From positions 483,650-515,649 of the forward strand of contig JBHLRO010000001.1 in the NCBI GenBank assembly GCA_048882505.1: 32,000 nucleotides of DNA, read 5' to 3'. Under the pieces are notes generated by a model. It saw nothing but the letters and a program-made list of their open reading frames with translations, did no database searches and was not told the DNA's origin. This DNA is from Candidatus Thorarchaeota archaeon (GTDB taxonomy: Archaea > Asgardarchaeota > Heimdallarchaeia > Hodarchaeales > Hodarchaeaceae). This document shows, piece after piece, positions 10,623-28,154 of this stretch. A program made the position numbers and the translations under genes. Each line of letters opens with the position of its first letter. The stretch's first letter is position 1.

Positions 10623-11024
10623 TTAAACTTTCTTTTTCAAATCCGCAAACAACTCATGGATATTACCATCGGGGTCTGCAAAAAAAGCTGTTCGCTGATT
10701 CCATGGCATATTCTCAGGTTTCTTTATAGGAACCGCTCCCTTCTTAATAATATCATCATAAACTATGTCAACCTCTTCTGGGGACTCTAAAACAAAAGCT
10801 AATTCAAAGGATTGACCATGACGCCCCTCAGAGTAACTTTGGTGCTTTGTGGCTTCTTTCATTACTGATCTGGTTGTCAATGCAAATCTCACAGTTTCAG
10901 AAAGAAACTCGACATACTGTTCCAATTGTAATTGGATTTGAAATCCTAACACGTTTTTATAAAATTCTGTAACTCCCTCTAGATCATCAGTAATCACCGA
11001 TATAAGGTCTATTTTAGGTTTCAA
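10623..11024 (-). CDS. VOC / glyoxalase family protein
   Basis: ITDDLEGVTEFYKNVLGF and MPWNQRTAFFADPDGNIHEL; SD aaggtga before the TTG start. Confidence 0.92.
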   Translation of the reverse strand: MKPKIDLISVITDDLEGVTEFYKNVLGFQIQLQLEQYVEFLSETVRFALTTRSVMKEATKHQSYSEGRHGQSFELAFVLESPEEVDIVYDDIIKKGAVPIKKPENMPWNQRTAFFADPDGNIHELFADLKKKV

Positions 11025-11803
11025 TAATTTTTCACCTTAATTCCGTGGATTCCTAGAACCAATATTAGTATCCCTACCCATTAAAAGAAGCTCTTGGAAA
11101 TCGGATGAAGTCTTGTTGAATAAAAGGGATCAGAGAAAAAAAAGTTCAAAACTGTCGAGCTGGTTTGGTTAGTAAAATAAATATCAGAAAAAGGATCAGG
11201 ATTCTTATTTTGGATAAATATATTCTGGAAAATTGATCGTAAGTAAAGCATTTTCGGGAAAACTCAGGTTTTTAAATTTATAATTTTCGACTGAAAAGGT
11301 GGGACTATCTACTTTTACATATGAAATTATAGAGCTAAAACGAGTTTTCAATATCATCCGCCCTCAGAAATCTCGTGAAATTGAATTCGCATCAATTAGT
11401 GATCGGGAGTATATTCCATCATTAAAAAAAGTGATATCTATACTAAACTGACATTTAAGAATAATCTAGGAATTAATAAAAGCATTCTTTAGCTCTACTG
11501 AAAGCCATTAGGCCATGCCACAAATCAAAGGGTAACCAATGAATCGCTTAATCAACAAAACAGTAAAGAATTAAGAGGATTATACGAAAATCGAGGCTTT
11601 TATTATAAAAAGTTTTTTAACTAATTTTACTTCATCGCCGGGGGACGAGAACTGACATCATATCACTACCTTTCAATCGTTAGCAAGATTAGACAGTGGG
11701 GAAAAATCAGAACTCGTTGCAAATGAGCGTATTCATTGAGAAGTGAGATGGAATAAGTCTTACTTCAAAAGTGAAAAGCTAGAGGTAAATAGGAGATGAG
11801 ATT

Positions 11804-12337
11804 GTGAGTACATCACAAATTTTGAATAAAAGAAAAAAACTCTTTGCGGCATTGGTGTTCATTGTTTTTTTGTTTTCAATCGCACCAAAAGTAGCAAACG
11901 GCGATACTACTGTCACAGTGAAAAAGTTACAGATAAAAATCACCACTGTATCACACTCAGGTGGGACATTCGGATCTTATGCATTTGATATTCAAATGAA
12001 AGTTTTCTGGAAACGTGTCTATAATAGCTATTGGGGTTACTGGGCGTCAGATGGAACTTATGAAGATAACCAATTGGGAGCTACCTATAATACAGGCTTT
12101 TCATCTTCTCCATCAGGAACTGACACTTGGAATGTTTATTCCGACATGTGTTATTCAAAACAAAACTTAAAGGTCGAATTCAGAGTTCGGGGATGGGGCT
12201 GGTGGCTTGGTGCATATATTTATGAAACGAGCCACCTCATGGGAACTAGGTATTACTATAATTATGATGGTGCCGAGGAAATACCTTATTCATATGGTTC
12301 CTTTTCTGTAACGGTCCACTTTCAAGTACTTACATAA
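11804..12337 (+). CDS. Secreted Tyr/Trp/Gly-rich beta-strand protein, function unknown
   Basis: SD aggag and GTG start; class I signal peptide (KRKK-LFAALVFIVFLFSIA-PKVANG); no C-terminal anchor. Confidence 0.75.
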   Translation: MSTSQILNKRKKLFAALVFIVFLFSIAPKVANGDTTVTVKKLQIKITTVSHSGGTFGSYAFDIQMKVFWKRVYNSYWGYWASDGTYEDNQLGATYNTGFSSSPSGTDTWNVYSDMCYSKQNLKVEFRVRGWGWWLGAYIYETSHLMGTRYYYNYDGAEEIPYSYGSFSVTVHFQVLT

Positions 12338-12467
12338 ACAAGCAAAACAAGACCAAAAATCTAATAGAAGTTGATTTAGTATAGAAAGTATGATGATTTC
12401 ATTAGAAATAATGATAATTCTTCATACTTTCCTTTATATTTTTTGCTAATTTAAAAGAAGATGCCAA

Positions 12468-13256
12468 ATGCCTGAAAGAGGAATTATAATGAAAAATATA
12501 ATAAATCCATCATTCTCATATGCCCTTTTCCTATTAATTGTTCTTAATCCCTTTATGATTAACTATGAAAACATTAGTGGTAATACACCAGTGTTATACT
12601 ATGGGAGAACGGTAGAAGAGGGAGTAAACATTCCCCTGAATCTTAATGCCTTTAATGGATCCCAATCTGTGCTTGATGAGCTCAATCAATCAGACTCAGT
12701 CAATGTTACATGGATGACACTGAACGTTTCCTTTTCTCTAAATATGAGTATTTGGAATCACGTTGAAATAGTTCATATTAATGCATCGGGATATTTTGGA
12801 AGGATCACCGCCTATGATAGTGAATTTAGAAATGTTTGGTATCTTTCAGAAATTATAAACGTAACTAACGTCATTGTGTGGAAAGATAATGATCATTCAG
12901 GAGAATATTACTATCGAGAAGCCCTAAAATCGAATTCATTACCTAATATCTCTGGTTCATATGATCAAGAGAAGAATGAATTTGTTATATCAGAGTTTGA
13001 TGAAAGTGAAAATATTTCTACACGTTTAATTGTTGATACACTAAGAGGTGTAACTAAAAAAATTGTCCTCTATGAATCTTCTGCATCGTACAAAGGTACC
13101 TTTAACTGTGATCGCATAGAAATATCTGTAGGTCTGTATGTGCCGCAAAACGATGATGAGAACTTCTTACAGATCATATTTGTTTCGGGTTTTCTTATCG
13201 TGATATCGTTTGTTGGATTTCTTTATAAATATCGAAGGATGAGTCAGAACCAATAG
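12468..13256 (+). CDS. Membrane-anchored surface (glyco)protein
   Basis: N-terminal hydrophobic segment, 10 N-x-S/T sequons and a C-terminal TM helix followed by KYRR. The start could be ATG 12489. Confidence 0.75.
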   Translation: MPERGIIMKNIINPSFSYALFLLIVLNPFMINYENISGNTPVLYYGRTVEEGVNIPLNLNAFNGSQSVLDELNQSDSVNVTWMTLNVSFSLNMSIWNHVEIVHINASGYFGRITAYDSEFRNVWYLSEIINVTNVIVWKDNDHSGEYYYREALKSNSLPNISGSYDQEKNEFVISEFDESENISTRLIVDTLRGVTKKIVLYESSASYKGTFNCDRIEISVGLYVPQNDDENFLQIIFVSGFLIVISFVGFLYKYRRMSQNQ

Positions 13257-13263
13257 TAGACGA

Positions 13264-16065
13264 ATGACTTATCGAGGAAGGAATTTGTTTAACAAAATCC
13301 GTATTCTTCTTTTTCTTCTAATAGGACGGAAAAGAAAGTTATTTTTTACAATTTTCTCTTGTACAGTATTTATTGTCAATTTTCAGGCCTTATTATTCTT
13401 TAATTTTACTAGTATCAATCCTTTCCAAACCTTTGTGAATGATCTCAGCGATGACACGATAACTCTCTATCTGGGTTCTGATGAATTTGACAATACTACT
13501 TCTTTTACTGATATTATGAATGCTTACACATATTTTACAAAGAATCTACCTCAATCTATTCAAAACTATGATGTAAAAAAGACCATATATGCACCTTTTA
13601 ATGTATTTAATCATCCTAATTTTACTGTGATTGACAAGAACTCTTCTAATTATGGTGAGTTCGATAATAGTATTTTTACTTTGGAGAATAGTTTTAGAGA
13701 TCTTCTTCATCAAATAAACAGTTCTGAAAACGGAAGAATCATAACAGGAACAAATAAAATCGAAGGCATAATCTTTTCAGCAGAGCTGGAAAGCTCATCA
13801 GTTTATAAAACAGCCGAAATCCAGATTATTGACTACAAAGAAAACAATAGTAGAATTCTCACAACATTTACTTTCTTAGTGCTAAATCGTCTGCTTTTTG
13901 ATAGTGCTAATTCAATTTCAAGTAATTTTCCTGAACTTGCTTATAATCCTAAAATTATCATACCCTTTAATCAATCGTACAAATTGGGTTGGTTTCGTGG
14001 TTATTTTTCAACTTTTATCACTTTGGAGCTACAAAAAAACGCCTTAACGAATATCGTATTAAATCCTATCCTTAAGGTAAAGTATTTGAATTTTTTAACT
14101 GATTTTCATAAGTATTTAGCGAGTTATCAGTGGGAAGGTATCCATAACTTTCATATTGATAATCAGATTGTTACAATGAGTAAATTAGTGGACGATATAT
14201 TAGTTATTTTCCTAATATTGCTAGCTTTGACATTGATACCCATAATTATTTCTATTCTGTTTTTGATTATATATTCTGAAAATATCCGAAATCATACCTT
14301 CAAAAAAGATTATTTGAAAAAACTATTGTTTCGAGGATATTCCAGAAACTTTATTCTCTTTTATTATTCATTTGAATCAATTGTTATCGTATCTTCTTCA
14401 ATTTTTCTAAGTTTTATCCTCTCATTTGCAGTTTTTGAGACCATTATAATCCAACTCCCTGACATAATTGAACCAGACGCGATATTGGGATTCATTACTG
14501 TAGTAATGAATCCTGTAAATAATGTTGTTTTCCTTTTTTTCCTATTTTTTACTCTTATCTTATTGAATGGAAGGGGTTTATTTCTAAATATACATGATCA
14601 AGCTTTAAAAACTGAAGAATATACAGATCCACAGATAACTGAATACCAACTAAATAAAATCCCTATCCTTGTATTTAGTATACTATTGATCTTATTTATT
14701 AGCTTGACGGTTATTTTTTCTTCAGGGAAGGAGATACCTCTATTTATTGGACTCCTAATCTTCTTATTTGGGATTTGGTTATGGGTAGTTTGTGGACTGT
14801 TTTTTCTGAAAAAAATTTATCGATTTTTTTCCGAAAGATATGAATTAGTTATTGCTTTGAATCTGTTTCATAAGAATTATTTCTCCCAAAGAAAGTTAAC
14901 GGAAGCTTTATTCTGGATATTATTGATCTCTTTTACAGTTCCTTCGTTAATGGATACCTTTGATTATAATCTTCAGAGAGATGCCTATTATAAAACAGGA
15001 GCTGATATTCAACTACAAATTGACCCTTTCATTAACCATGAAGAACTCTTTTTAAAACTAAATGAGGTTCCCGAGATAACGAACTTTGATCTTGTTTATC
15101 AAACGAGCCTTACATTTGGTACTGAATTTACCTCAGTTCCTAATATGTATGAGATAATAGGACTTGATCCAAGAACTTTCTTTTCAAGAAAAAGTTTTGA
15201 ACCAAATTTTCTCGAAGGAATTTTGGTTGATGAGGCAATAGAAGAACTGTCACGTCAGGGAACGGTTCTTATTCCCAATAAGGATATAATGAGACTAAAT
15301 TCTGATATAGAAGAGAATTTCTCGATTTTTGGTTATATAGACTATCCTACTAAAAGTACCAAAGAATATGATCTAAAAATTATAGGGGGTGTGAAACATT
15401 GGCCTTCAAAAACCCTTAAACAGCTTACTGATTATCAAATTCAACTTTTCACATCAATGCAAACTTTATTTGCCCTTATCGATGATTGGAACGTATCTGT
15501 GACACAAATGGTATTAATTGATCTTGTCAATTCAAGTCTCTCTCAAGAATCATACAATTATCTCCTCAATAATCTCTCCAGTAGTGTCTTACTAAATGTG
15601 AACGTACAATTAGAGAATAAAACCTCTTCATATACATATTCGAATCTACAAGGTCAAATATTCGAAATTTTTTCAATTATTGTTTCTAATGCTACGATAT
15701 TAGTTATAGTACCGATTTCATCCATTTTTTTGTTCTATTTGTCCTATAGAATGGAGAACAATGTTGGTATACTGGAATCTATTGGATTTAAGAAGAAAAA
15801 TATTGGTTTAGCTTTTACAGGATACTTTTTTATGCTGTTTGTTATTGGTCTAACAGGTGTTGGAATACTAGGAATATTTTTACTGGAAGTAATTTCCATT
15901 TCAATCACGACTCCGTCCGGCCTCGAGCTAATTCCAAAAATACGAATTGGGTTTTTGGTTATTATATTTTTCATTGAAGGTTTGGTTCTTTTTTTAATTG
16001 CCTTAATTTTCAATAAGCACTACCTAAGAGAGCAACCAGCCAACTTAATAATGAGGAGGGATTAG
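13264..16065 (+). CDS. FtsX/MacB/LolC-like ABC transporter permease (two fused modules)
   Basis: The pattern TM + large extracytoplasmic domain + 3 TM occurs twice; QRDAYYKTGADI; C-terminal GILESIGFKKKNI...FTGYFF; the gene sits 5 nt upstream of an ABC ATPase. Confidence 0.85.
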   Translation: MTYRGRNLFNKIRILLFLLIGRKRKLFFTIFSCTVFIVNFQALLFFNFTSINPFQTFVNDLSDDTITLYLGSDEFDNTTSFTDIMNAYTYFTKNLPQSIQNYDVKKTIYAPFNVFNHPNFTVIDKNSSNYGEFDNSIFTLENSFRDLLHQINSSENGRIITGTNKIEGIIFSAELESSSVYKTAEIQIIDYKENNSRILTTFTFLVLNRLLFDSANSISSNFPELAYNPKIIIPFNQSYKLGWFRGYFSTFITLELQKNALTNIVLNPILKVKYLNFLTDFHKYLASYQWEGIHNFHIDNQIVTMSKLVDDILVIFLILLALTLIPIIISILFLIIYSENIRNHTFKKDYLKKLLFRGYSRNFILFYYSFESIVIVSSSIFLSFILSFAVFETIIIQLPDIIEPDAILGFITVVMNPVNNVVFLFFLFFTLILLNGRGLFLNIHDQALKTEEYTDPQITEYQLNKIPILVFSILLILFISLTVIFSSGKEIPLFIGLLIFLFGIWLWVVCGLFFLKKIYRFFSERYELVIALNLFHKNYFSQRKLTEALFWILLISFTVPSLMDTFDYNLQRDAYYKTGADIQLQIDPFINHEELFLKLNEVPEITNFDLVYQTSLTFGTEFTSVPNMYEIIGLDPRTFFSRKSFEPNFLEGILVDEAIEELSRQGTVLIPNKDIMRLNSDIEENFSIFGYIDYPTKSTKEYDLKIIGGVKHWPSKTLKQLTDYQIQLFTSMQTLFALIDDWNVSVTQMVLIDLVNSSLSQESYNYLLNNLSSSVLLNVNVQLENKTSSYTYSNLQGQIFEIFSIIVSNATILVIVPISSIFLFYLSYRMENNVGILESIGFKKKNIGLAFTGYFFMLFVIGLTGVGILGIFLLEVISISITTPSGLELIPKIRIGFLVIIFFIEGLVLFLIALIFNKHYLREQPANLIMRRD

Positions 16066-16070
16066 ATTCA

Positions 16071-16781
16071 ATGGCTAAAGTCATTGCAGAGTTGGAATGT
16101 AGTGAATTAGTCAAGATTTTCACCACCGAAAATTCTAATGTTTCAAGAGCTGTATTAAAAGGGATTGATCTTAAATGTAAAACTGGAGAATTAATATGCA
16201 TCATTGGGCCAAGCGGTTCTGGAAAAACTACCTTACTTCAAATAATTTCAGGGTTTTTAAAACCCGATGCTGGATTTGTAAAACACGACACACAAATTAT
16301 CAACAACTTTAGTCGAAAGAAACTTGAGGAATATTGGAGAGAAACTATTACCTTTATTTATCAAGATCCTTATGATAACGTCTTTCCACATCTCCCTATC
16401 AAAAGAAATATCCTTATAGCATGTAATCTGAGCAAAAATAGGAGGTTTTTGAACGATGAATTTATTTCAAGGGTATTACTGGAGGTGGATTTGAAAAAGC
16501 ATCTATCCACACCTAGTAATCGCTTATCTGGTGGAGAAATACAGAAATTGGCTTTTGCGATTGCAATTATTCGAAATTCTCAGCTGATCTTACTTGACGA
16601 ACCTACAGGAGAAATTGATGCTGAAGCAAGCCAGAACATCTTTCAAATACTCACCTCTTTATGTCACAGAAAAAAAATGATTGGCATTTTAGTGACTCAT
16701 GATAAACTTGCTTTGAAATATGCAACAAGAGCCTTTTCTCTAACAGAAGGAAGGCTGAATGAAATAAAATTGAATAAATAA
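16071..16781 (+). CDS. ABC transporter ATP-binding protein (LolD/MacB-like)
   Basis: Walker A GPSGSGKTT, Q-loop IYQDP, signature LSGGEIQK, Walker B ILLDEPTG, H-loop VTHD. Confidence 0.95.
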   Translation: MAKVIAELECSELVKIFTTENSNVSRAVLKGIDLKCKTGELICIIGPSGSGKTTLLQIISGFLKPDAGFVKHDTQIINNFSRKKLEEYWRETITFIYQDPYDNVFPHLPIKRNILIACNLSKNRRFLNDEFISRVLLEVDLKKHLSTPSNRLSGGEIQKLAFAIAIIRNSQLILLDEPTGEIDAEASQNIFQILTSLCHRKKMIGILVTHDKLALKYATRAFSLTEGRLNEIKLNK

Positions 16782-17217
16782 ATTGGTGAATCTAATGAAG
16801 TCGACTCTCTTTTCCAAAATTGCCATTTTTTTTCTATTCACATCGGGGATTCCTTTTTATTTTTGCCTGGGCATCATTTTTTACTGATTTTTCTTCCTGA
16901 CGTATTTTTTAACAGTACACACGAACGACAGTAATTTTGACACCTGGTCATCCTGATCCTCCTTTAGGTTTCTTACCAATTGATTTCGTGATGAAATGAA
17001 TAAAATCATTTTGTGAGAAGATGCTATTTCCTATAAGAAAATATTCAAGCAGTCACCTACCAAAAACGACTCAACAAGCGACTAATTAACGGCAAAAACA
17101 GTGAATGTTTCATTAAGAACTAAAAAATGATTCCTTTGCTATGATTTCCTGAAAGTCTTTGATTTTTTTCTCTAATCTCTTTTATTCATCAGAAAACGTA
17201 CATCTGATCTAGAATTC

Positions 17218-17967
17218 CTATTTTTCCTCAGATACCACAGATCTGATCTTCTTTAATTCGGACAACATCTGTTTTCGAAGAATCGCAATACCGGTCGCTC
17301 TGTCTTCCTCTCCGGCAGATCGCTTGGAGCTTCTAAGAGGACTAACTGGGGACGGAGGGGTTGGTTTGGTCACGCCAGGAAAAGAAATTTTCGGCACTGA
17401 AGGACTTAAATGTTGTTTTTCTGGCATGGGAGGTTTTGAAAGGCTCGATGCCGTTGACGAAGGAGTAGGCGATGAAGTGGTTGGCTTGGAGATAGAGGCA
17501 GTTTCTGGAAACGAAAAACTAATTTCGGGCTTAGAAGTAACAGGGGTGGCAGGAGGGGAGGGGGAGATTTTGGCTTCAGGAGCTGCGATTTTTGGAATAG
17601 AAGCACTGGGAATCGGCTCTGGAACTGGAGCAGGCTGTATTGGTTCAGATGGTGGTACCTCCCGTTCATGAGGTGACAGTTCTGTTCTCCCTCCAAAAAG
17701 CCTAGTCACTGAATCGAACTTCGGAATATCTAGGTCTCGAATCTGCTCAAATTGAAACTCTCGCGAAACTCGTTCAAGTGTCGTAGAAGTAATATGACCT
17801 TCAAGAAGGCTTTCCTTTAACATATGTTCAAAACGGAGAGCGTTAACTTGAAATGCGTGTGCCACATGAGCATACTCTTCAAGAGGGAGGCCTCGAAGTT
17901 TGAGAGAGGTGTCGAATCGAAAATCTCGTTGCGTCTTGTCTGTCTTTTTCTTAAACAGCCTTACCAA
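17218..17967 (-). CDS. Protein with helical N-domain, long Pro/Ser/Thr-rich disordered linker and amphipathic C-terminal helix
   Basis: SD gagga and TTG start; about 110 aa of low-complexity P/S/T/K sequence; C-terminal EDRATGIAILRKQMLSELKKIR. Overlapping ORFs in other frames look like shadows. Confidence 0.8.
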   Translation of the reverse strand: MVRLFKKKTDKTQRDFRFDTSLKLRGLPLEEYAHVAHAFQVNALRFEHMLKESLLEGHITSTTLERVSREFQFEQIRDLDIPKFDSVTRLFGGRTELSPHEREVPPSEPIQPAPVPEPIPSASIPKIAAPEAKISPSPPATPVTSKPEISFSFPETASISKPTTSSPTPSSTASSLSKPPMPEKQHLSPSVPKISFPGVTKPTPPSPVSPLRSSKRSAGEEDRATGIAILRKQMLSELKKIRSVVSEEK

Positions 17968-18559
17968 GGTTGGTCAATCCTCGAGCCTATAATGTACCGA
18001 CGAAAGGGTATAGTTCAATTTTTCGGCTTTAAATCTTAGGATGGATATTCCATCCAATTATCATCAAGAGAGTTTAATAGTTATATACTTTTATTATTAT
18101 ACATTCGAATTGTGTTGCCACTCCTCTTCGTGTATTAAGATTGACTAGGTTCTTTATTCTTCTACCTAAGATTAAATCGCGTTTATCTAATGATTGATCC
18201 TGCTTGTGTACTTTTCCCCCTATCTTCCATACATACAGACAATGAATTAGGACATACTTGAACGTCAATGCCCCCTCCTAGGCCTAATCCTCGAAAAAAT
18301 CAAAATTCCATCTGTGGCCATTTGTCATCTAGTAAGACCGAACTTAGTTTTCAAAGGTCTTATACATACTCCACTTACGATAAACTTGTGAAGGGAGGCT
18401 TAATGAACGCTCTAGAGTTCTATGTTGTTCTCTACTTCACATTTTGAAAACGGAAGTTAAAGACCCAAATACTGAACACCAAAAGTTAAAAAGAGAAACT
18501 AGGACCAACCATTTTACGGGATAGCACCTGGAATTATCGTAAATACTGAGGTATTACAT

Positions 18560-19624
18560 GTGTCAACAGTTAGAATAGTATTGGTCGGGGTTGGCAACGC
18601 CGCTTCATCGCTTACCCAGTCTTTGGTTTATTATAAAGATCGCCCTAGTGGGACAAAATATGAAACGATTGGAGATCTTCGGATAGGTGATATCGAAATC
18701 GTGTCCGCTTTTGATGTCGTTAAAGGAAAAGTCGGGAAAGATCTAGGGGAAGCGATCTTTGCAGAACCAAATGTTGCCCCGAAATTTATTAATTTCCAAC
18801 GGCCGACTGGGGTTGAGGTAAAGAAGGGACCTACGCTTGATGGAATATCACCATTACTCGCCGAAAGCATTGAATTAAGCCCTGTACCAGAAATGGATAT
18901 TGTTAAAGAATTAAAATCCGCTGAGGCCGATATGATGGTTTCTCTATTACCCACGGGTGCACAACAGGCTACATACGCTTATGCGGAAGCTGCCTTAACT
19001 GCAGGCCTTGCTTTCATTGAAGCTGCTCCGACACGGATATGTTCCGATGATAAATGGGTTAGGAGATTTAAGCAGGCTAATTTACCCGTTGTAGGAGACG
19101 ATCTTCAGTCTCAGATTGGAGGAACCCGTATTCATAAAGGTATCCTCGAAATGCTAGACTCATTTGGGGCCAAGATAAAGAACACTTACCAGCTTGATGT
19201 TTCAGGAGGGAGTGAAGGAATGAATACCTTGTATACTGAAAGACGTGACGAAAAACGGAAAATCAAAACGCAATCTATTAAGCGAACCCTTCCTTATCTT
19301 TCAGACGATGATATTGCATCAGGTACGACGGATTATTTAGATTTCCTGGAAAATGAACGGACAGGATATTTTTGGATATACGGGGGTTATTACTTGGACA
19401 CCCCATTCAAGATTGACGTCACAGTAAAAACATTAGACGGCCCTAATGGCGCAGGCACTCTCGTGGATGTCATTCGGGCAACCAAACTCGCATTGAGGCA
19501 AGGCATTGATGGTCCACTCATCTCAGTGTCGGCCTACGGATTCAAATACCCTCCTATTCATATTGGAGAGCACGCTGCGGTGGCTCGATTTGAAGAGTTC
19601 ATTGCAGGTGAGAGGCAGGATTGA
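18560..19624 (+). CDS. ino1: myo-inositol-1-phosphate synthase (archaeal/actinobacterial short type)
   Basis: IVLVGVGNAASS, IEIVSAFDV...KVGKDLGEAIFAEPN, LPVVGDDLQSQIGGT, TYQLDVSGG, DGPNGAG..VDVIRATKLA; SD gaggt and GTG start. Confidence 0.92.
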   Translation: MSTVRIVLVGVGNAASSLTQSLVYYKDRPSGTKYETIGDLRIGDIEIVSAFDVVKGKVGKDLGEAIFAEPNVAPKFINFQRPTGVEVKKGPTLDGISPLLAESIELSPVPEMDIVKELKSAEADMMVSLLPTGAQQATYAYAEAALTAGLAFIEAAPTRICSDDKWVRRFKQANLPVVGDDLQSQIGGTRIHKGILEMLDSFGAKIKNTYQLDVSGGSEGMNTLYTERRDEKRKIKTQSIKRTLPYLSDDDIASGTTDYLDFLENERTGYFWIYGGYYLDTPFKIDVTVKTLDGPNGAGTLVDVIRATKLALRQGIDGPLISVSAYGFKYPPIHIGEHAAVARFEEFIAGERQD

Positions 19625-19667
19625 TATTAATCCACGTCAAATCAATAAAGCAAAGTTTGGGTTTGAG

Positions 19668-19952
19668 GTGCTGAAGTCAGTAAAAATTTTCGTATCAGGC
19701 AGAGTCCAAGGTGTTTTCTTTAGATCTTATACCAAGGAATTTTCAGAAAGACTTGATGATGTTACAGGTTATGTGAAGAATCTACAGGATGGAAGAGTAG
19801 AGATCTATGCAGAAGGATCCGAAGCTTCTCTTCGTGCCCTTGCAAAATGGGCTAAAATCGAAGGTTCCCCTGCATCTAAGATACAGGGAACGGAGGAAAT
19901 CTGGGGAGATCTACCAACGCGAAATTTTGGCGACTTTCGAATCAGGTTTTAA
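19668..19952 (+). CDS. acyP: Acylphosphatase
   Basis: VSGRVQGVFFRSYT, GYVKNLQDGRVEIYAEG, GSPASKI. The start was moved from 19506 (inside ino1) to GTG 19668. Confidence 0.93.
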   Translation: MLKSVKIFVSGRVQGVFFRSYTKEFSERLDDVTGYVKNLQDGRVEIYAEGSEASLRALAKWAKIEGSPASKIQGTEEIWGDLPTRNFGDFRIRF

Positions 19953-19957
19953 GGGAA

Positions 19958-19983
19958 TCATTTTTCTTTCTTTTTTTTCTTAA
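19958..19983 (+). terminator. Oligo-T terminator after ino1-acyP
   Basis: catttttctttcttttttttctt begins a few nt after the stop codon. Confidence 0.55.
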
Positions 19984-20156
19984 ATTCCGACCATTCTTTT
20001 TCGGTCAGAAAAGACACAGGCTTTTATCTTGAGGCCACTTCGATAATTGATCCCCTCTGGTCAATAACCTTGGAACTTCTGGTTCCAATATACAGATAAG
20101 GAACTGGCTTATAATCGCAATAAGTTAAAAACTTCGGTTTTTCAAACAAAATTTAG

Positions 20157-21095
20157 ATGGAATCTGGAATGGAAAGATCAGTGGAATACGAGGCACGAAT
20201 CGTTTGTGATGCCGATTGCCGAGTATGTGTAGCAAAGAGAGAGAAGGATGTAAGTACCGAAGGAGGAGATATACTCCATTTTTGTCGTTCGTGTCAAGAA
20301 AAATATCTCTGTCCCGTAATCCTACCAACCACCTCGCGAGGGAAGGAATATCAGTGTCCAAAATGCTCTGAGAAATTGACGGAAATGACCCTAGAGCGCG
20401 CTCAACAAATAGGCCTGGCCTTTGGAGTCCAGCTCACCCGTATCAAACCTGAACGACGCCCAGTCGAAGAAATTAAACGAACATGGTTTTATTCGCCATC
20501 AGACCAAGGAGTCCTTTCTGAAAACTATGTCAAAGACCTATTGAATTACAAGGGTTTGGGGGTTTCCCAACTTACGGATTTGATGTACCACGCAGATTTT
20601 TCGTACCGTCCAGAGGCTAACCTTGAAAAACGACGTATGTTATGGGACATATTTGCTAAAAAACCACAGATTATTAGATCCCTTCATAACAGCTTGATTA
20701 CTCGCTCTGAACATCGTCGTGTCGACCTAGTTATTCGGACGCTAATGCAGCACGAGACGTTAGGATGTACCTATATTAGTTCTATTATCCCCAAGCATCT
20801 TGCAGGAACTATTGATCTCATTGGGATAGATCGGAAAACTGGGGGACTTGTCTGGATTGTTGTTCACGAAGATCGAATTGATGAGCAATTGATCAATACC
20901 CTCTTCAACGAAATCTTGAGCCTTCCTCCTCTCGAATTTATGGGTATTGAACGTTTAATCTTACTCACCAGAAAATGGATATGGATGGGAGCCGAAATTG
21001 CCAGACGGCAAGGTAAGGTCTTAACTAGATGGAAACAACTGACGATGGAACTTTGGGAGGAAAATCCGAATTTTACATTGCAAAAGCTTGCGTAG
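20157..21095 (+). CDS. Cys-rich Zn-binding domain fused to an apparently inactivated PD-(D/E)XK nuclease-like domain
   Basis: C17-x3-C21-x2-C24, H41-F-C43-x2-C46, C52, C67-P-K-C70. The C-terminal GTIDLIGIDRKTGGLVWIVV matches the NucS/Mrr-type IDILAxD..G.LVVIELK pattern but has lost ExK. Confidence 0.65.
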   Translation: MESGMERSVEYEARIVCDADCRVCVAKREKDVSTEGGDILHFCRSCQEKYLCPVILPTTSRGKEYQCPKCSEKLTEMTLERAQQIGLAFGVQLTRIKPERRPVEEIKRTWFYSPSDQGVLSENYVKDLLNYKGLGVSQLTDLMYHADFSYRPEANLEKRRMLWDIFAKKPQIIRSLHNSLITRSEHRRVDLVIRTLMQHETLGCTYISSIIPKHLAGTIDLIGIDRKTGGLVWIVVHEDRIDEQLINTLFNEILSLPPLEFMGIERLILLTRKWIWMGAEIARRQGKVLTRWKQLTMELWEENPNFTLQKLA

Positions 21096-21254
21096 AGGGA
21101 GTCATCAGGTACCAATAGAATATTCAAAAATGCATTCCCAACGAAAAAGGGATCACTGCAGAAAAATTAAAATTTTAAGTATAGTTGCCCATAGGACGGA
21201 AAAATCACAGACTCAAATAGCAAATGCACTAAATTTACTAATGGAGTAAATATT

Positions 21255-21285
21255 TAAAGAAAAGGGTAGAACAGAAAAAAACTAG
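21255..21285 (-). terminator. Oligo-T terminator after the Rab-like GTPase
   Basis: The minus strand reads ctagttttttttctgttctacccttttcttt downstream of the stop codon. Confidence 0.45.
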
Positions 21286-21310
21286 GGAGGTGATTCTCGA
21301 AATCTTTTGG

Positions 21311-21877
21311 CTAGGTCTGCTGCTGTTGTCGCTCCACATAATCCAGATATACATTCCCAAGCATATCAAAGGCTGCAGACACATTTAAACCTGTTTTAGC
21401 AGAAGTGGGCATAAATTTCACTGGAAAACCCGATTCCATAGTCTTTTTTGAAAGATTTACTGAAAATTCCTCTGCCTGACCATCGGTAACGTGGTTGGGA
21501 AATTGTTCCCGCAAGTCCACTTTGTTCCCCAGAAGTACGATCGGAATCATACCCTTTCCGTTATGTTGGAAAATTTCATCAAGCCAAGCTTCTAAATTTG
21601 TGAATGTATCAGGCCGAGTAACATCGAACACCAGAAGGGCACCCAGGCATCCATAATAATAGACGCTCCGGACTGTCCCAAATCGGGGTTGACCAGCCAA
21701 GTCCCATATCTGAAATTTGATGGATTTATCCCTGATTGTAGCTTCTTTGAGTGCAAAATCGGCTCCTATGGTCATCATATAATTGCTGGAGAATCCTTTC
21801 CCAAGGTAGCGCTCTCGGAGGGCGGTTTTGCCGACTGCGCCATCACCTGCGAGTACTATCTTCATTAAGAATGACAT
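21311..21877 (-). CDS. Rab-like small GTPase (Ras superfamily, Asgard type)
   Basis: G1 GDGAVGKT, G2 MTIG, G3 WDLAGQ, G4 NKVD, G5 TSAK; RabF1-5-like IGADF, KFQIW, RFGTVR, YYYGC, LVFDVT; no C-terminal prenylation Cys. Confidence 0.95.
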   Translation of the reverse strand: MSFLMKIVLAGDGAVGKTALRERYLGKGFSSNYMMTIGADFALKEATIRDKSIKFQIWDLAGQPRFGTVRSVYYYGCLGALLVFDVTRPDTFTNLEAWLDEIFQHNGKGMIPIVLLGNKVDLREQFPNHVTDGQAEEFSVNLSKKTMESGFPVKFMPTSAKTGLNVSAAFDMLGNVYLDYVERQQQQT

Positions 21878-22039
21878 GGTTATACCTCATTAGAGTATCG
21901 CGTGAAATGTATTAATTGGATGGTTCAGAGGGATAGTTCCCCATTCTAATTGACTGCTGGGGAGTATTGTATTGATTAATCATATTCTTTAATGTCGATA
22001 TTTAAAGCTGATTATTTGTTTGAAATAAATATTCCACAG

Positions 22040-22738
22040 CTAAACAGCGATTTGCTCGATGGAGTTTACAACACGGGCACCCGAAAGACTTGGAATCGTG
22101 GCAGTACCCATTAATAGAAAGATGTAGCGGTCTTTTGCGAACTTTTTATAACCTTTGGTAAGGTAAGAGATAGTATCTACTTCAGATTCATCCATAGCAA
22201 ACCAGATGGCCACGCGTTTCTTCTTGAACCCCCCTTTCTCCGCGACCAGATCAACGGGAGTCGCTTCGCTTACGATCGCCCGAACATTCTCTTGAACCTT
22301 GTACCCAGCCTTAGAGAATCTTGATCGCAGCGCAGCGGTCAGCAAGTAAGCTTTTATCTCCCCCGCTTTTCGTAAGTATTTTTCTCCTTCAAATTGTTGA
22401 CCCAAACGATCAAATGCTCCTGCCATCTTCCGAAACACACGGAAAAGAAGTTCGTTAGGGTGGACAGCGGTGGGGGGAAGCTCGAGAGTTTCTAATTGTG
22501 TCATCGCCGCGACTAGGTGGCTCAAGGCTTCTTGATCCTGCCGTTCAAGAATCTTTGTGTCCGCTAAACCTTCTTGAATCTCAGATTCGAGTAATAGGCG
22601 ATCAGTCTGGCTGAGCGTATCAGGAGGTTGAGACTGAAGAGCTGCGAGAGCATTGGTAAGGATCGTATGTGCTTGCTCAGTCTGCTTCGCGACTATGAGT
22701 TTCTTTGCTTCTTTTAGGGACAATTCAAAATCCATCAT
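22040..22738 (-). CDS. TPR-like helical domain fused to an apparently inactivated PD-(D/E)XK (Mrr-like) domain
   Basis: About 135 aa of amphipathic helical hairpins, then LRSRFSKAGYKVQENV...PVDLVAEKG...RVAIWF, where IECK-type catalytic residues are replaced by IWF. Confidence 0.62.
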   Translation of the reverse strand: MMDFELSLKEAKKLIVAKQTEQAHTILTNALAALQSQPPDTLSQTDRLLLESEIQEGLADTKILERQDQEALSHLVAAMTQLETLELPPTAVHPNELLFRVFRKMAGAFDRLGQQFEGEKYLRKAGEIKAYLLTAALRSRFSKAGYKVQENVRAIVSEATPVDLVAEKGGFKKKRVAIWFAMDESEVDTISYLTKGYKKFAKDRYIFLLMGTATIPSLSGARVVNSIEQIAV

Positions 22739-22945
22739 AATTCCTCTCGGGTTATAGCGAAACCTTATCCCATTTTCGATAAATTTCTGCTATTAGGGGA
22801 ATCCTAAATACTCCATTATAATCTTCTTCCGTGTAGCTGTAGGTATCGAAAACAGATCTTGTTAACAATCGGAACTGGTAATTCCTTGGCCGCAAGAATC
22901 CAAAGTTTTACGCATTTTATATCTGTTTGATGAAAGATGGTTTCC

Positions 22946-23671
22946 TCATTCATGGGTAACAAGGCGCGAAATTTGCGTAAGATATGTTTCGATACTATGT
23001 TTAGGTTTAAGGGCAACCAAAAGGATTCTCTCTGCATCCATGGTGTAGAGGAGGAGTGTATTAGTTCTTCCAGTCACTGCAATACTTTGTGCAGTCCCAC
23101 CCATGACTTTTGTAGGTAAACTTAAAGCTGAGGAGACCGCAGCCAATTGAGCTGGGTCAACATCAAGACCAACCAAAAACTCGCTCAGTGGAGCCCCGAC
23201 AGTTGTGAAGATAAGGATTGCTTCAGCTTCAGGAATAGAACGTTTTAGGCGCTCAATAAGGCTGTCTTCTATGTCGAGGGTCTTTATGATCGCGTTGATA
23301 TGATCAGCCGCTTCTCGGAGCTGAGTTCGGAGCTCCGCCATTGGTGGTCGTTCTTCAAATGATGATTTAGGGACAATAATTCTTGTAATAAGGATTGTGT
23401 CTCTTGCAAGGGTTGCCACAACGATCGCATCCTCTTGAAACACAATATAATCTAGTGTATGATCATTTAGATTCTCATCCATGAATTTTTCAGATATGGC
23501 TAATGCACTGGTAACGGCAGCGGGCAGAACATAAAGTTCATCCCCCGCAGTTGACCTCCTGGTTCGTTCAACGAGCGGAGACCCGTCTAGTGCGGCCACA
23601 ATGCATTGATGGACGTGCTGATTGCTAAACAATTTATCTAGGATTTTCTCGATTTCTGGATTATCGATCAA
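22946..23671 (-). CDS. Tandem roadblock/LC7 (MglB-like) domain protein
   Basis: Two copies of helix, short beta-hairpin (CIVAALDGSPL; AILIFTTVGAPL), helix (LPAAVTSALAIS; LAAVSSALS) and three strands; SD gaggtga and TTG start. Confidence 0.8.
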   Translation of the reverse strand: MIDNPEIEKILDKLFSNQHVHQCIVAALDGSPLVERTRRSTAGDELYVLPAAVTSALAISEKFMDENLNDHTLDYIVFQEDAIVVATLARDTILITRIIVPKSSFEERPPMAELRTQLREAADHINAIIKTLDIEDSLIERLKRSIPEAEAILIFTTVGAPLSEFLVGLDVDPAQLAAVSSALSLPTKVMGGTAQSIAVTGRTNTLLLYTMDAERILLVALKPKHSIETYLTQISRLVTHE

Positions 23672-23704
23672 TGCCGAATTTCACCTCTTAATAGGATACT
23701 TTTG

Positions 23705-23865
23705 GGGACTCGGAAGATCTGGGCTTGTCTCGTTTAAAAACCTGACGATTTCAATATTCCGAGACCCTTTGACGAGTACTCAGAGAGTTTGGTATAACCC
23801 TAAGTGGGCCGCTCTCTCTTTCTGGGTATGATCCTATTCATACCTGGTCTAAATATATCACCAGG
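23705..23865. repeat. Cluster of inverted repeats in the gap-roadblock spacer
   Basis: gggactcggaa (23705-23715) / ttccgagaccc (23757-23767); agagag (23782-23787) / ctctct (23812-23817); ggtatga (23825-23831) / tcatacc (23838-23844); cctggt (23843-23848) / accagg (23860-23865). Confidence 0.6.
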
Positions 23866-23880
23866 ACAGCAAAACTTCTT

Positions 23881-24963
23881 CTAAGATGAGAATAATTCGT
23901 TTAGAAATTCCGGTTTATAATTTCCACTTCTATGGATTCCTAATGCTTCGTCTGTCTTCTTCATACATTGTCCAACATTTGTTTCCCTAGCTAAAAGGGC
24001 GCGGATGGCATCAATGGTCTCGGGGATCGGAATAGATTCCATATGAACATCGTAAATCAGATACAGATTTTTTTGAGAATCCAAATTCAACGTTTCTTCC
24101 CAAATAAAGACCTCTGGGCGATCATATCTAGGTCTACCCAAATCACGAAAATACTCTACTAATTGCGCCGAATCGTACAATCCCTGACGGCCGGGCTCAA
24201 TGAGAATACGAGGCATCTGTTGGAATAGGCTAATTACTTGCTCACGGTTTAGTTCGGATGCCATAGTCACTTTCAGCATATGAACATGGGAGAGGGTCCA
24301 GCTCCCAGCAATTGCTAATGAATAAATCCTGTCTTTCATTTGGGGCATGACAGTTACAAGGTCGGGACCATGATGAGAAACTCCAAGGACGGGTGTTACA
24401 GCATTGATTGGACCACGGTTCGTTCGAGCTGGATCGCCGGCTCGCCTAGCAAGGGCGACAAAAGCCTCTGAAACTCCAAATTTGTGGGCTAAAGAGGCGA
24501 TAATTCGTGTTAACGCGGTCGTATTACACGAGACAACCCGAGTTTCGTCTACTCCTATGTTTTCGGCATAATTACCAAAAGTCGAAAACGATCGGTTGGT
24601 TAGCGAATGGCTTTCACCCCCGTGCACAATATACTTGACTCCATGCTTTTGGTAAAGAGGAATATTGTTACGGGGAACTCCTGAGGGAGTACAATCAACC
24701 ATAATATCTACATTCTTAACCAGATCTTCGAGAAATCCCACGATTTCAAATCCTGCATCCCGCATCTTAGGAGCGAAATCGGATACACTGCAATATATTG
24801 GATATCCACGTTCGACCGCGATTCGGAGACGAACGTCAGAGATAATATCGGCTATTCCGGTTAATTCCATATCTTTCTGAGCATAAACTGCATCTGCAAC
24901 CCTTTTCCCAATAATACCATATCCAACAACCCCTACCTTGGCTTTGTCATTTGCAGGACTCAC
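23881..24963 (-). CDS. gap: Glyceraldehyde-3-phosphate dehydrogenase, archaeal type II (phosphorylating)
   Basis: KVGVVGYGIIGKRVADAV, DCTPSG, HGGE, RVVSCNTT (catalytic Cys), RRAGDP, GPINA, SHHGPD. The start was moved to GTG 24963, just after the upstream gene's stop and a gagga SD. Confidence 0.95.
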   Translation of the reverse strand: MSPANDKAKVGVVGYGIIGKRVADAVYAQKDMELTGIADIISDVRLRIAVERGYPIYCSVSDFAPKMRDAGFEIVGFLEDLVKNVDIMVDCTPSGVPRNNIPLYQKHGVKYIVHGGESHSLTNRSFSTFGNYAENIGVDETRVVSCNTTALTRIIASLAHKFGVSEAFVALARRAGDPARTNRGPINAVTPVLGVSHHGPDLVTVMPQMKDRIYSLAIAGSWTLSHVHMLKVTMASELNREQVISLFQQMPRILIEPGRQGLYDSAQLVEYFRDLGRPRYDRPEVFIWEETLNLDSQKNLYLIYDVHMESIPIPETIDAIRALLARETNVGQCMKKTDEALGIHRSGNYKPEFLNELFSS

Positions 24964-24973
24964 AACGCTTTCC

Positions 24974-25411
24974 TCAGAATAAATTTGATGATTTCCTCTC
25001 TTCAATAAGTCCCTGAAGGAGTTTTTTCCCTTCCTCGGTCAGATAGAACATCCGAATGACGGTGGGATCAGCGATTTCAGTAATACTTTGCCCCAAATAA
25101 TCCAGGGTTTTCTTTACCATAGCGACGTCATGCCCAACAAGTCCTATGGCTTCCAACCACCCTAATGAAAGCAATGTTTTCTCAATTGAAAGCTTAGATT
25201 TTTCTTTGATTTTTTTGTATGTGACGCCGCGAATCCCGGTAGCCCCATGATGGCCTCGATAAAATTCCTCAGGATTTTCCAGTGCAAGGATCACTTTCTT
25301 CTGATCGATATTCAGGTCTTTGATTGATGTCACGCTTGCCAACCACCGAAATAGGCTATTTTTGTGAAGGTTTTCCTGCAATAAATAAGATGGAAAGTCA
25401 GGTACATCCAT
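24974..25411 (-). CDS. Winged helix-turn-helix protein, paralog A
   Basis: YKKIKEKSKLSIEKTLLSLGWLEAIGLVGH...RMFYLTEEGKKLL fits an HTH + LxxxGLV + wing + YxLTxxG pattern; the stop lies 10 nt before gap. Confidence 0.75.
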   Translation of the reverse strand: MDVPDFPSYLLQENLHKNSLFRWLASVTSIKDLNIDQKKVILALENPEEFYRGHHGATGIRGVTYKKIKEKSKLSIEKTLLSLGWLEAIGLVGHDVAMVKKTLDYLGQSITEIADPTVIRMFYLTEEGKKLLQGLIEERKSSNLF

Positions 25412-25530
25412 TTTCCTCTCACTAATAAACTAGCATAGGGGTTTAACACACGGGTTGTGATCTTCAATATGGGCTTATTGATATGGGTAAGTTTGATGGC
25501 CCTGATATCGCTAAGAATTTCCGAAAAATG

Positions 25531-25902
25531 TCAGCTAGAGCTATTAAGGTTCGACCCAATCGCCATACCTTTTATCATCTCCCTTCCCAAACTAGAAAGC
25601 CTAAATATCCTTACGATTTTTTGACCTGCGATCTCAACATTACTTCTGCCATGATAATTGATAGTTTGTCTCTGGACGGCAGGTATATGCTCGATCAAAC
25701 CTTTCGCTTCCAGTCCACCAAGAGAGAGTAACGTTTTTTCGAATGAAAGCTGGGATTTTTCCATGATTTTCTTATACGGCAGTCCAATGAAAATTCCATT
25801 CCCACGCTCTTCGGAAACCAAATATTCAGACGGATCAAAATAATTGAGAGCAAGGATTTCCAGAATCGTGCGCATATCATTACTTAAATTCATGTACGAC
25901 AC
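25531..25902 (-). CDS. Winged helix-turn-helix protein, paralog B
   Basis: YKKIMEKSQLSFEKTLLSLGGLEAKGLIEH...RIFRLSSLGREMI; 37/74 identical to paralog A without gaps (hand count). Confidence 0.75.
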   Translation of the reverse strand: MSYMNLSNDMRTILEILALNYFDPSEYLVSEERGNGIFIGLPYKKIMEKSQLSFEKTLLSLGGLEAKGLIEHIPAVQRQTINYHGRSNVEIAGQKIVRIFRLSSLGREMIKGMAIGSNLNSSS

Positions 25903-26028
25903 TGATCCCCAGGTTTCACACTTGCTTAATTTTCCTCATAGATTTTTTTTTAAGCCTTCTTGAGTTCTTGTTTCTGGTAATGAAAAAGTAACCCCTTTCA
26001 TAATCATGAAGACGGTATAAGGGGTAAC

Positions 26029-26565
26029 TTATTCAACGGAAATAACAAGCTGGTCAATGGGGATACGTTTACTAGGAATAATATTATCTTCAGCACAGTG
26101 GCCAATAGCAATTAGCGCAATAGGCCGTTCAATAAACTGTACTGGTACCTGGAGCTTAAGAATGTTGATGACTTCTTCTTCTGAAAAGGCCCCCACCCAG
26201 ACAGAAGCGAGGCCCGCGTTAGTACACGCTAGCTGTAAGTAGGCTGCAAAAATTGTAGCGTCCTGAATGGCATATAGAATACGACCCCGTTCATGATATC
26301 TTGTGCTGGAAATCGATGGGGCTGCAGACACCACAACCACTATTGGGGCTTCTGCGAGGAAACTCTGATCACCGGCCGCATGTGCTAGTTTCTCTCGTGT
26401 AAGTCTATTCTTGACCAAGATCAATCGTAGGGCTTGTAAGTTACCCGCACTAGGAGCACGTTGGCTCAATCTGATGACACCTTTAATCGTCTCATCGGGA
26501 ATTTCTTTTTTTATGAAGAAAGACCGACAGGAAAAGCGTTGTTTGACTAGAGTTTCAAATTCCAT
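26029..26565 (-). CDS. Nitroreductase family FMN-dependent oxidoreductase
   Basis: LVKQRFSCRSF, RAPSAGNLQ, QDATIFAAYLQLACTNAGLASVWVGAF, PIALIAIGH. ATG 26565 was preferred over GTG 26577. Confidence 0.93.
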   Translation of the reverse strand: MEFETLVKQRFSCRSFFIKKEIPDETIKGVIRLSQRAPSAGNLQALRLILVKNRLTREKLAHAAGDQSFLAEAPIVVVVSAAPSISSTRYHERGRILYAIQDATIFAAYLQLACTNAGLASVWVGAFSEEEVINILKLQVPVQFIERPIALIAIGHCAEDNIIPSKRIPIDQLVISVE

Positions 26566-26864
26566 TAGTATTTCCACGAAACCTTTATTTTTCGGTTATC
26601 GGGAGGATTTCGGATCTGTTTTTCGATTTTTCCTAGTTCTGAACAGATTTCAAATGCATTTGAATGCCAAACTAAAATCGTTCGAGCGGGGTTGATACTT
26701 AGAAAGGTATCCTGGGCAGGCCATCAAGGGCCTTATTTTACCTCAACACGTCATTTCAGATATATAGGCCGATATCCATGGCTTTTGCAGATTTTACGAC
26801 CAAGATATACATTATTGTAGAATCATGAAGAGGGGTGAGTTTTTATAGAATCATCTAGATTGAT

Positions 26865-28154
26865 TTGGATAACAACTTTCGAGGAAGAAATTGGTTGGTT
26901 GAGGTGAATAAATCGCTGGCGGAGCAATTACCAAAGAAACGGTCGAACTTGCTAAGCCGCGCGAAGAGTTTCATTTTCTCAACAGCTGTTGGGGATAGCG
27001 CATCAAAATTATGTCGGCTTAACTTTCAGTTTGGATTGGCGAAAATGCATCTTGTCCAAGAGGATTTGGGGCTTCAAAGTGACGCCTCCTTTATATCGGC
27101 CCCAGATTGCACGATTTCCCGGAATGTTCATCGCTGGCGTAATGGAATTGGCTACGGAGGTAAGGTTACATGGGGAGACGGTTCACAACCTCTCGTTTTC
27201 ATCGATACGATGCCCAATGCTTGTGGGATGCTAGTAGGGGCTTTAGAAGAACCTCCTGATCCTACCAAATTAATACAAAAAATCCATGAAATGAATGATT
27301 CATCGGGCGAAGTGGAAATTGCTGGCGTACCCCTCCACTGGAATTATGGGGCTGGAAATCACTTTATTAACGTATTCGATGTAGTTCCCAATCCAGCCGT
27401 ACCAACTTCTGTGGAATTTCCACCTCACGCCTTTATTACCCATTCCTCACCTAGCGAGTTAAAGAGTGATAATAATCCAAAGAATCTTGGATTCTACTAT
27501 CACAAAAGTGAGCGTCTGCAAGAACTTGCAGAAGTCTTTGAGACCCCCTTTGGTGACATAAACTACCTTATCGACGATGCAGCATTAAAATATTATGAAT
27601 TTTATAAATGGGCAGAGGAATTTGGCGCGAAACGTCGGGAATTGGCAGCGAGTCTCCTTTTTGAAGATGGATACCGCATTATCTCGAATCATTGCCATCA
27701 AGGAATGGTTCATCCAAATGAAATCGTCTTGGGGAGCCATGTATTCAAGCCAAATGATCCGGAATTCTATCCATTAACCTTAAGAGCCGATTTACCCTGT
27801 TATTTGATGAGAGGGATCCCTAATTTTACCGAGGAGGCCTTAGAAACCTTAAATTTTCGAGAAAGAAGCCAACATCTTGGAATAGAAGAACGTCTCCTGA
27901 ATGCTAACATATTACCGCATGGGGGCGGATATACATTCCCTCATATCGTTTCAGTTCCGGAAATCTTTGAAACAGTGGAAAAACGGAGGTATTTCTCCGT
28001 TGACATGGGAACAGGGATTGGAACCTTGATATTTGAATCTCCTCGGGAGCTCCAGTTTTCTTATAGGGGCCGTAACGTTGTTATCCATACCGTAGAACTG
28101 GGATTAGGTGAAATTGTTGCACAGATGGTGCCACGGTATGCACTGAAGATCTGA
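26865..28154 (+). CDS. Highly divergent RtcB-like protein (RNA 3'-phosphate/5'-OH ligase fold)
   Basis: RtcB motifs in the correct order: APD, NACG, GAGNHF, ITHS, NHCH, PHGGG, SYR, and terminal P..ALK. The start codon is uncertain (TTG 26865 or GTG 26904). Confidence 0.7.
   Translation: MDNNFRGRNWLVEVNKSLAEQLPKKRSNLLSRAKSFIFSTAVGDSASKLCRLNFQFGLAKMHLVQEDLGLQSDASFISAPDCTISRNVHRWRNGIGYGGKVTWGDGSQPLVFIDTMPNACGMLVGALEEPPDPTKLIQKIHEMNDSSGEVEIAGVPLHWNYGAGNHFINVFDVVPNPAVPTSVEFPPHAFITHSSPSELKSDNNPKNLGFYYHKSERLQELAEVFETPFGDINYLIDDAALKYYEFYKWAEEFGAKRRELAASLLFEDGYRIISNHCHQGMVHPNEIVLGSHVFKPNDPEFYPLTLRADLPCYLMRGIPNFTEEALETLNFRERSQHLGIEERLLNANILPHGGGYTFPHIVSVPEIFETVEKRRYFSVDMGTGIGTLIFESPRELQFSYRGRNVVIHTVELGLGEIVAQMVPRYALKI

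Follow-up and report, generated by a model that had tools for sequence, protein, structure and literature searches.

Asgard archaea encode dozens of eukaryote-like small GTPases, the regulators and effectors of which are mostly unassigned, and the Hodarchaeales are the order proposed as sister to eukaryotes. In bacterial conflict systems, the NACHT-associated inactive restriction endonuclease (REase) NA-iREase1 provides adaptor modules fused to STAND NTPases, and the Rag GTPases of eukaryotes bear a C-terminal roadblock domain of their own. Roadblock domains are established GTPase regulators, as in MglB and Ragulator (PMC4316618; PMC10933270), and the actinobacterial conservon CvnA-D comprises four genes including the roadblock protein CvnB, the small GTPase CvnD, and two more components, one of unknown function (PMC4316618). 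An Asgard operon was described that joins a LAMTOR1-like roadblock-superfamily protein, a Rab-like GTPase, and a DENN-domain protein (Liu et al., bioRxiv 10.1101/2020.10.19.343400). The genes of Asgard GTPases generally do not share operons with those of roadblock, longin, or TRAPPC3 proteins, such that their partners are not readable from genome layout (Tran et al., PMC10933270). The present analysis concerns a four-gene cluster, genes A to D, at positions 20157-23671 of a 32,000-nucleotide stretch of Candidatus Thorarchaeota archaeon DNA (order Hodarchaeales; GenBank assembly GCA_048882505.1, contig JBHLRO010000001.1, positions 483,650 to 515,649), termed the window throughout.

The cluster encodes an intact Rab-like GTPase (B), a likely double roadblock protein (D), and two proteins that end in REase-like folds (C and A) and whose families have lost the catalytic motif throughout, with linkage to a GTPase gene in several lineages. 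These features point to a GTPase module specific to the Hodarchaeales, a reading given a probability of roughly 55%. The four open reading frames (A on the forward strand and B, C, and D on the reverse strand in the frame listing), as well as the motifs quoted in the original prediction, were all present as described there. The genes and their parts are as follows:

20157..21095, + strand: gene A, 312 amino acids (aa); Zn-binding N-terminal region, helical middle, and C-terminal catalytically degenerate REase-fold domain
20205..20366, + strand: A residues 17-70, with eight Cys (C17, C21, C24, C43, C46, C52, C67, and C70)
20709..21092, + strand: A residues 185-312, NucS/Mrr-like fold without (D/E)xK
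21311..21877, - strand: gene B, 188 aa; intact Rab-like small GTPase
22040-22738, - strand: gene C, 232 aa; tetratricopeptide repeat (TPR)-like repeats and REase-like domain
22043..22309, - strand: C residues 144-232, small beta-beta-beta-alpha-beta(-beta) domain, from secondary structure, shape search, language-model neighbours, and family alignment
22310..22738, - strand: C residues 1-143, three TPR-like helical hairpins followed by a long connecting helix
22946-23671, - strand: gene D, 241 aa; two roadblock/LC7-like halves
22949..23317, - strand: D residues 119-241, second roadblock-like half, from Robl_LC7 matches among relatives
23318..23671, - strand: D residues 1-118, first roadblock/LC7-like half, from a Robl_LC7 match and PF03259 matches of homologues

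The GTPase, its probable roadblock neighbour, and two degenerate nuclease folds

B matched the Pfam Ras family (E 6.4e-43) and carried the complete set of nucleotide-binding motifs G1-G5 (GDGAVGKT, the switch-I Thr T36, DLAGQ, NKVD, and SAK), including the catalytic Gln of DxxGQ, and its best matches in the Protein Data Bank (PDB) were a Thorarchaeota Rab (7ezb; 2.2e-34) followed by Rab7, Rab8, Rab2, and Rab11. Judged by these motifs and matches, B is an intact Ras-family GTPase that is nearest to the Thorarchaeota Rab and Rab7/8 among solved GTPases. MglA-type GTPases have a G3 motif without the conserved Asp. This residue is typical of other GTPases (PMC4316618) and its presence in B (WDLAGQ) ruled out the MglA family, while assignment to the Rag/Gtr family was ruled out by the 188 aa length, made up of the G domain only with no fused C-terminal roadblock. 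The C-terminal Cys prenylation motif of eukaryotic Rabs was absent from B, which ends ...VERQQQQT. In one lineage, the B orthologue is followed after 29 bp by a gene for an Rce1-like (CPBP family) membrane protease (contig L081, 1792-2676), despite B being without a CAAX box. B was the most conserved gene of the neighbourhood, with 87-93% identity across the genus (leaving out the near-identical genome G061) versus 71-76% for the neighbouring GAPDH-like dehydrogenase and myo-inositol-1-phosphate synthase (MIPS) and 52-67% for A, C, and D, which fits a hub protein with many partners.

The N-terminal half of D gave a weak match to Robl_LC7 (E 1.7e-4 and 21.7 bits, below the cut-off of 23), and a PF03259 match was precomputed for many of its homologues. 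Robl_LC7 was also matched by the C-terminal half in 12 of 16 family members (best E 2.9e-4), the two halves aligned in register (hhalign E 6.4e-4, probability 28%), and the language-model neighbours of D were roadblock clusters of approximately 240 aa (0.97 and 0.92). D is thus likely to be a double-roadblock protein.

Residues 1-143 of C form a helix-turn-helix repeat solenoid as expected of TPR proteins, and residues 144-232 together with the preceding helix form an alpha-beta-beta-beta-alpha-beta REase-like fold. With the domain matched as part of the whole C model, an Atlas shape search aligned residues 92-231 with a DUF4143 cluster (template modelling (TM) score 0.70, normalised by match) and residues 90-232 with a cluster of Mrr_cat and NA-iREase1 (TM 0.57). 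A language-model search with residues 128-232 returned clusters of the PD-(D/E)xK clan only (PDDEXK_3, Mrr_cat, PDDEXK_11, and AHJR-like; 0.85-0.89, taken as leads only), while PDB fold searches with the whole model were filled by TPR proteins and thus uninformative on the C-terminal domain. The domain's sequence profile found weak local matches only in the PDB, such as MoaB (3iwt, E 0.0018 over 45 residues), and hhalign against a home-made Mrr_cat alignment gave a probability of 75% with all rows and 5% with the classical rows only. On the evidence of the structure model, the C-terminal domain of C adopts the REase fold. Strand 3 of this domain reads RVAIWFAM, and the basic hairpin KGGFKKKR and I-W-F-A sit where (D/E)xK belongs. 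The pattern P-V-D...K...K-x-R-x-A-I-W was invariant across 30 C orthologues, D163 was the sole invariant residue in an alignment of 25 diverse members of the domain family, and none of these 25 had (D/E)xK on strand 3. Searched exhaustively with a profile, 1.84 billion proteins yielded just 48 clusters with the domain, in three architectures of approximately 230 aa (TPR and domain), 600 aa (long TPR, linker, and domain), and 106 aa (domain alone). A 655-aa C paralogue (G000:C12:70597-72564; also contigs L013, 1098-3065, and L078, 8598-10565) combines a long TPR region and a disordered linker with the same dead-REase domain, and a Ras-like GTPase 31% identical to B is encoded 2.5 kb downstream of it, three genes away.

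A had 44 homologues, the named ones all from Hodarchaeales or Heimdall-type metagenome-assembled genomes, and two paralogues per genome. Its eight Cys were invariant in 28 orthologues as well as in both paralogues and in a distant homologue on contig L082, and would be enough for two Zn sites; Pfam returned weak Zn-ribbon matches only for this region. The C-terminal domain adopts the alpha-beta-beta-beta-alpha-beta REase fold (predicted local distance difference test score of the A model, 73), and a search of the PDB with its sequence profile found nothing significant. Strand 3 reads LVWIVVH(E), and D220 and W233 were the sole invariant residues of the fold when A, its two paralogues, and the L082 homologue were aligned.

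Pfam and NCBIfam gave nothing usable on A and C. The catalytic D...(D/E)xK motif was absent from every aligned member of both families, which retain the strand-2 Asp together with a Trp or other aromatic residue on strand 3. Loss in all aligned members indicates ancient, family-wide dead versions of the fold and not recent decay. The original prediction had proposed two independent pseudonucleases with a PD-(D/E)xK fold that retained the Asp and had lost (D/E)xK; the fold was upheld by the fold and shape searches and the motif loss by every aligned member, while independence is compatible with the data only. Comparison of the C and A domains by hhalign gave a probability of 1% and no visible relation in a test judged insensitive, because the A domain scored <1% against the home-made alignment of true Mrr_cat sequences despite its clear fold match, and the two nuclease folds may yet share a common origin. 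What would be a third kind of REase-fold protein is encoded beside a B orthologue in genome G070, where the GTPase gene is followed by that of a 132-aa Mrr_cat-like protein (contig L117, 3551-3949; G070:C456) from a small "DWKR" family conserved across the Hodarchaeales (e.g., G000:C1:215507-215842), a placement that may be due to chance.

Gene linkage and distribution

In the window, D, C, and B share one orientation with gaps of 207 bp (D-C) and 162 bp (C-B), and A converges on B with 215 bp between them. MIPS and acylphosphatase genes lie on the upstream side of A and the GAPDH-like dehydrogenase on the downstream side of D, so that the flanks are housekeeping metabolism genes without replication, repair, or defence genes.

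Adjacency to a GTPase recurred outside this setting. In genome G069, from another genus of the order, D, C, and B follow each other in one orientation with gaps of 60 and 93 bp and unrelated flanks, at identities to the window of 31% (D), 34% (C), and 67% (B), and no A was found near this cluster. C precedes B with a 68 bp gap on contig L081, and C, B, and A are all co-oriented in that order on contigs L082/L083, where the A homologue matched the hidden Markov model of the A family at E 3.6e-40. One A paralogue (332 aa, sharing 23% identity with A; contig L076, 7400-8398) has a distinct Ras-family GTPase (180 aa, Pfam 7e-26) 17 bp downstream, and this pair (L076 7400-8957; G000:C4:217399-218956) was retained in six of the seven other genomes checked, although its GTPase, unlike B, evolves fast (37-44% identity among genus members). 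Contig L119 has a Ras-like GTPase gene paired with one for a 292-aa protein, and this pair lies between genes for a stand-alone C domain and for a 600-aa protein combining TPRs with the C domain. The chance of a GTPase as immediate neighbour was estimated at approximately 2-3% per gene (some 52 GTPase candidates in the genome at first look, and an assumed 4,000 or so genes). Recurrent adjacency with changing flanks at a few-percent chance is hard to explain without selection, and the linkage to a GTPase is conserved beyond general synteny.

The order A, B, C, D was kept within the genus, and B was inverted in place between close relatives. In 15 of the 17 genus members examined, B was on the strand opposite to C and D and, where A was present, on the same strand as A and downstream of it; B was co-oriented with C and D only in the window genome and G061 (a 93-99% identical relative). 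The outgroups G069, L081, and L082 have C followed by B as in the window. Co-orientation of D, C, and B, as originally predicted, consequently held for the window and failed as a conserved trait since the strand of B flips within the genus.

The C domain was found in 23/23 genomes of the families designated f1 and f2, with two matches beyond these among the 400 Asgard genomes searched, one of them weak and the other strong, the latter from a genome of another family that is 72% complete. B orthologues (at least 65% identity) had the same range, the next-best paralogues being at most 59% identical. The cluster was found in every genus genome examined and is confined to one order, the Hodarchaeales.

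A further protein shares this order-restricted range with B and C. The gene at 17218-17967 (- strand) of the window encodes a proline-rich protein ending EEDRATGIAILRKQML(S/T)ELKKIRSVV, a motif almost invariant across the genus, and this ending recurs (56% over 43 aa, E 6e-9) in a proline-rich protein of 332 aa (contig L079, 5869-6867, - strand) that is the convergent neighbour of a C homologue in a distant lineage. The protein is a possible fifth component, and its invariant C-terminal helix-LKKI motif resembles the actin-binding WH2 motif. Elsewhere in the window, two adjacent paralogous small proteins of 145 and 123 aa (24974-25411 and 25531-25902, - strand), without a Pfam family, were retained as a tandem pair throughout the genus. 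The region 11000-17000 is AT-rich (GC 0.29-0.35 versus approximately 0.42 elsewhere) and was missing from the syntenic region of the closest relative, in which g10623 is directly followed by g17218 (contig L014).

A proposed GTPase module and its alternatives

In the proposed module, B would be the switch and D a single-chain roadblock pseudo-dimer that could act as a regulator of the nucleotide state of B or as a docking platform for it, on the model of the MglB dimer and the LAMTOR roadblock pairs. C, with its TPR and dead REase fold, and A, with its Zn-binding region and dead REase fold, would be non-catalytic adaptor, effector, or regulator subunits working with the GTPase. We infer the physical association of these proteins, the assignment of any of them as GTPase-activating protein, guanine nucleotide exchange factor, or effector, and the target of the module. 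Complex prediction for B, D, and C with GTP gave scores of 0.00, 0.33, and 0.00 and was counted for neither side.

The dead folds may instead, as the original prediction also allowed, still bind DNA or RNA, with A and C as nucleic-acid sensors or regulators whose state the GTPase reads or sets. DNA-binding enzymes have this fold, the basic hairpin of C is invariant (K168, K173, and R175), and the two-site Zn domain predicted for A is of a kind often found in nucleic-acid-binding proteins. However, the flanking genes (MIPS, acylphosphatase, and GAPDH-like) have roles other than replication, repair, or defence, and inactive REase domains are also known to serve as adaptors at the protein level, a use recorded in the Pfam name NA-iREase1, making this explanation unlikely.

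Several observations weigh against a functional module, and some of them favour four unrelated conserved genes that are chance neighbours in a slowly rearranging region. The stretch from 17218 to 28154 is syntenic throughout the window's GTDB genus (21 genomes), and with this 10-kb synteny the 21 genomes weigh as roughly one observation. The adjacency is conserved and a single transcript is not, as the strand flips of B and gaps of 160-215 bp mean that co-transcription is not required. Linkage was lost in G070, where separate contigs carry C and the B orthologue, each with unrelated neighbours, and on contig L079; one C homologue (P0196) and the A-family members of G069 and G070 had no GTPase neighbour, and D was linked in two lineages only. 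Against a chance arrangement, C-B adjacency recurs in G069, L081, and L082 with other flanks, a paralogous pair of an A homologue and its own GTPase exists, and further members of these families show a like association on L119, leaving the absence of any functional link quite unlikely. The linkage anticipated in the original prediction was accordingly recovered in G069, L081, L082/L083, and the A paralogue pair, with G070 and P0196 as exceptions, and the idea of a four-gene unit stood as to linkage and fell as to uniformity (the G069 cluster lacks A, G070 has C unlinked, and the orientation of B varies).

A bolder version of the module holds that dead REase folds are a hitherto unrecognised class of Rab-like GTPase partners (exchange factors, activating proteins, or effectors) and that the module may act on the cytoskeleton via the WH2-like proline-rich protein, which we consider a long shot. 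Finally, a GTPase-controlled, defence-like nuclease system in the spirit of McrBC, active via a non-canonical site in which the strand-2 Asp and the acidic stretches that follow strand 3 (MDE in C and HEDRIDE in A) could in principle bind metal, is highly improbable, as neither (D/E)xK nor a migrated Lys pattern is conserved in either family, the cluster lies among housekeeping flanks outside any variable island and in every genus genome examined, and the 87-93% identity of B across the genus is unlike defence genes. A defence system as such was rejected because B is very highly conserved and the flanks are housekeeping genes.

Comparison with described systems

The preferred reading of an order-specific GTPase module gives concrete candidate partners for one archaeal GTPase in the proposed sister order to eukaryotes; its reach is limited to this single order, without a known eukaryotic counterpart. 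The cluster is an exception to the general separation of Asgard GTPase genes from those of their regulators (Tran et al., PMC10933270), tying one exceptionally conserved Rab-like GTPase to three candidate partners, two of them of unexpected composition.

As in the bacterial MglA-MglB system of Thermus and Myxococcus, a small Ras-superfamily GTPase is encoded beside a likely roadblock/LC7 protein, the counterpart of which in MglA-MglB acts on the GTPase as a dimer; here, both roadblock units would come from the single chain of D, a fused pseudo-dimer. Unlike MglA, B has a canonical DxxGQ and Rab-like switch regions, and the two dead-nuclease-fold partners are without counterpart, as no TPR or nuclease neighbours are listed in PMC4316618. 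The conservon is likewise a four-gene module around a roadblock protein and a small GTPase, but its GTPase is of the MglA group and it includes a histidine kinase, whereas the present cluster has a Rab-like GTPase, no kinase, and TPR/REase-fold and Zn/REase-fold proteins as its extra components.

Closer to home, the operon of Liu et al. likewise combines a Rab-like GTPase, a roadblock-superfamily protein, and a putative regulator as its third member. Pfam and fold searches returned neither a DENN nor a longin domain for A or C; the third and fourth components here are dead REase folds, and the cluster occurs in one order as opposed to most Asgard archaea. In Ragulator-Rag, roadblock-domain pairs serve as a platform and regulator for small GTPases, as proposed here for D; it differs in that B (188 aa) is without the C-terminal roadblock domain of the Rag proteins and in that the cluster shows no sign of membrane anchoring. 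The NA-iREase1 modules share a PD-(D/E)xK fold without catalytic residues that is tied to NTPase-based signalling, in line with the match of the C model (TM 0.57), but the folds described here are fused to TPR or Zn modules, and their link, through gene order, is to a Ras-family GTPase among housekeeping genes. No literature was found that links inactive REase domains to small GTPases. The pairing of a GTPase with a roadblock protein is already known, and the dead-nuclease partners are a new composition.

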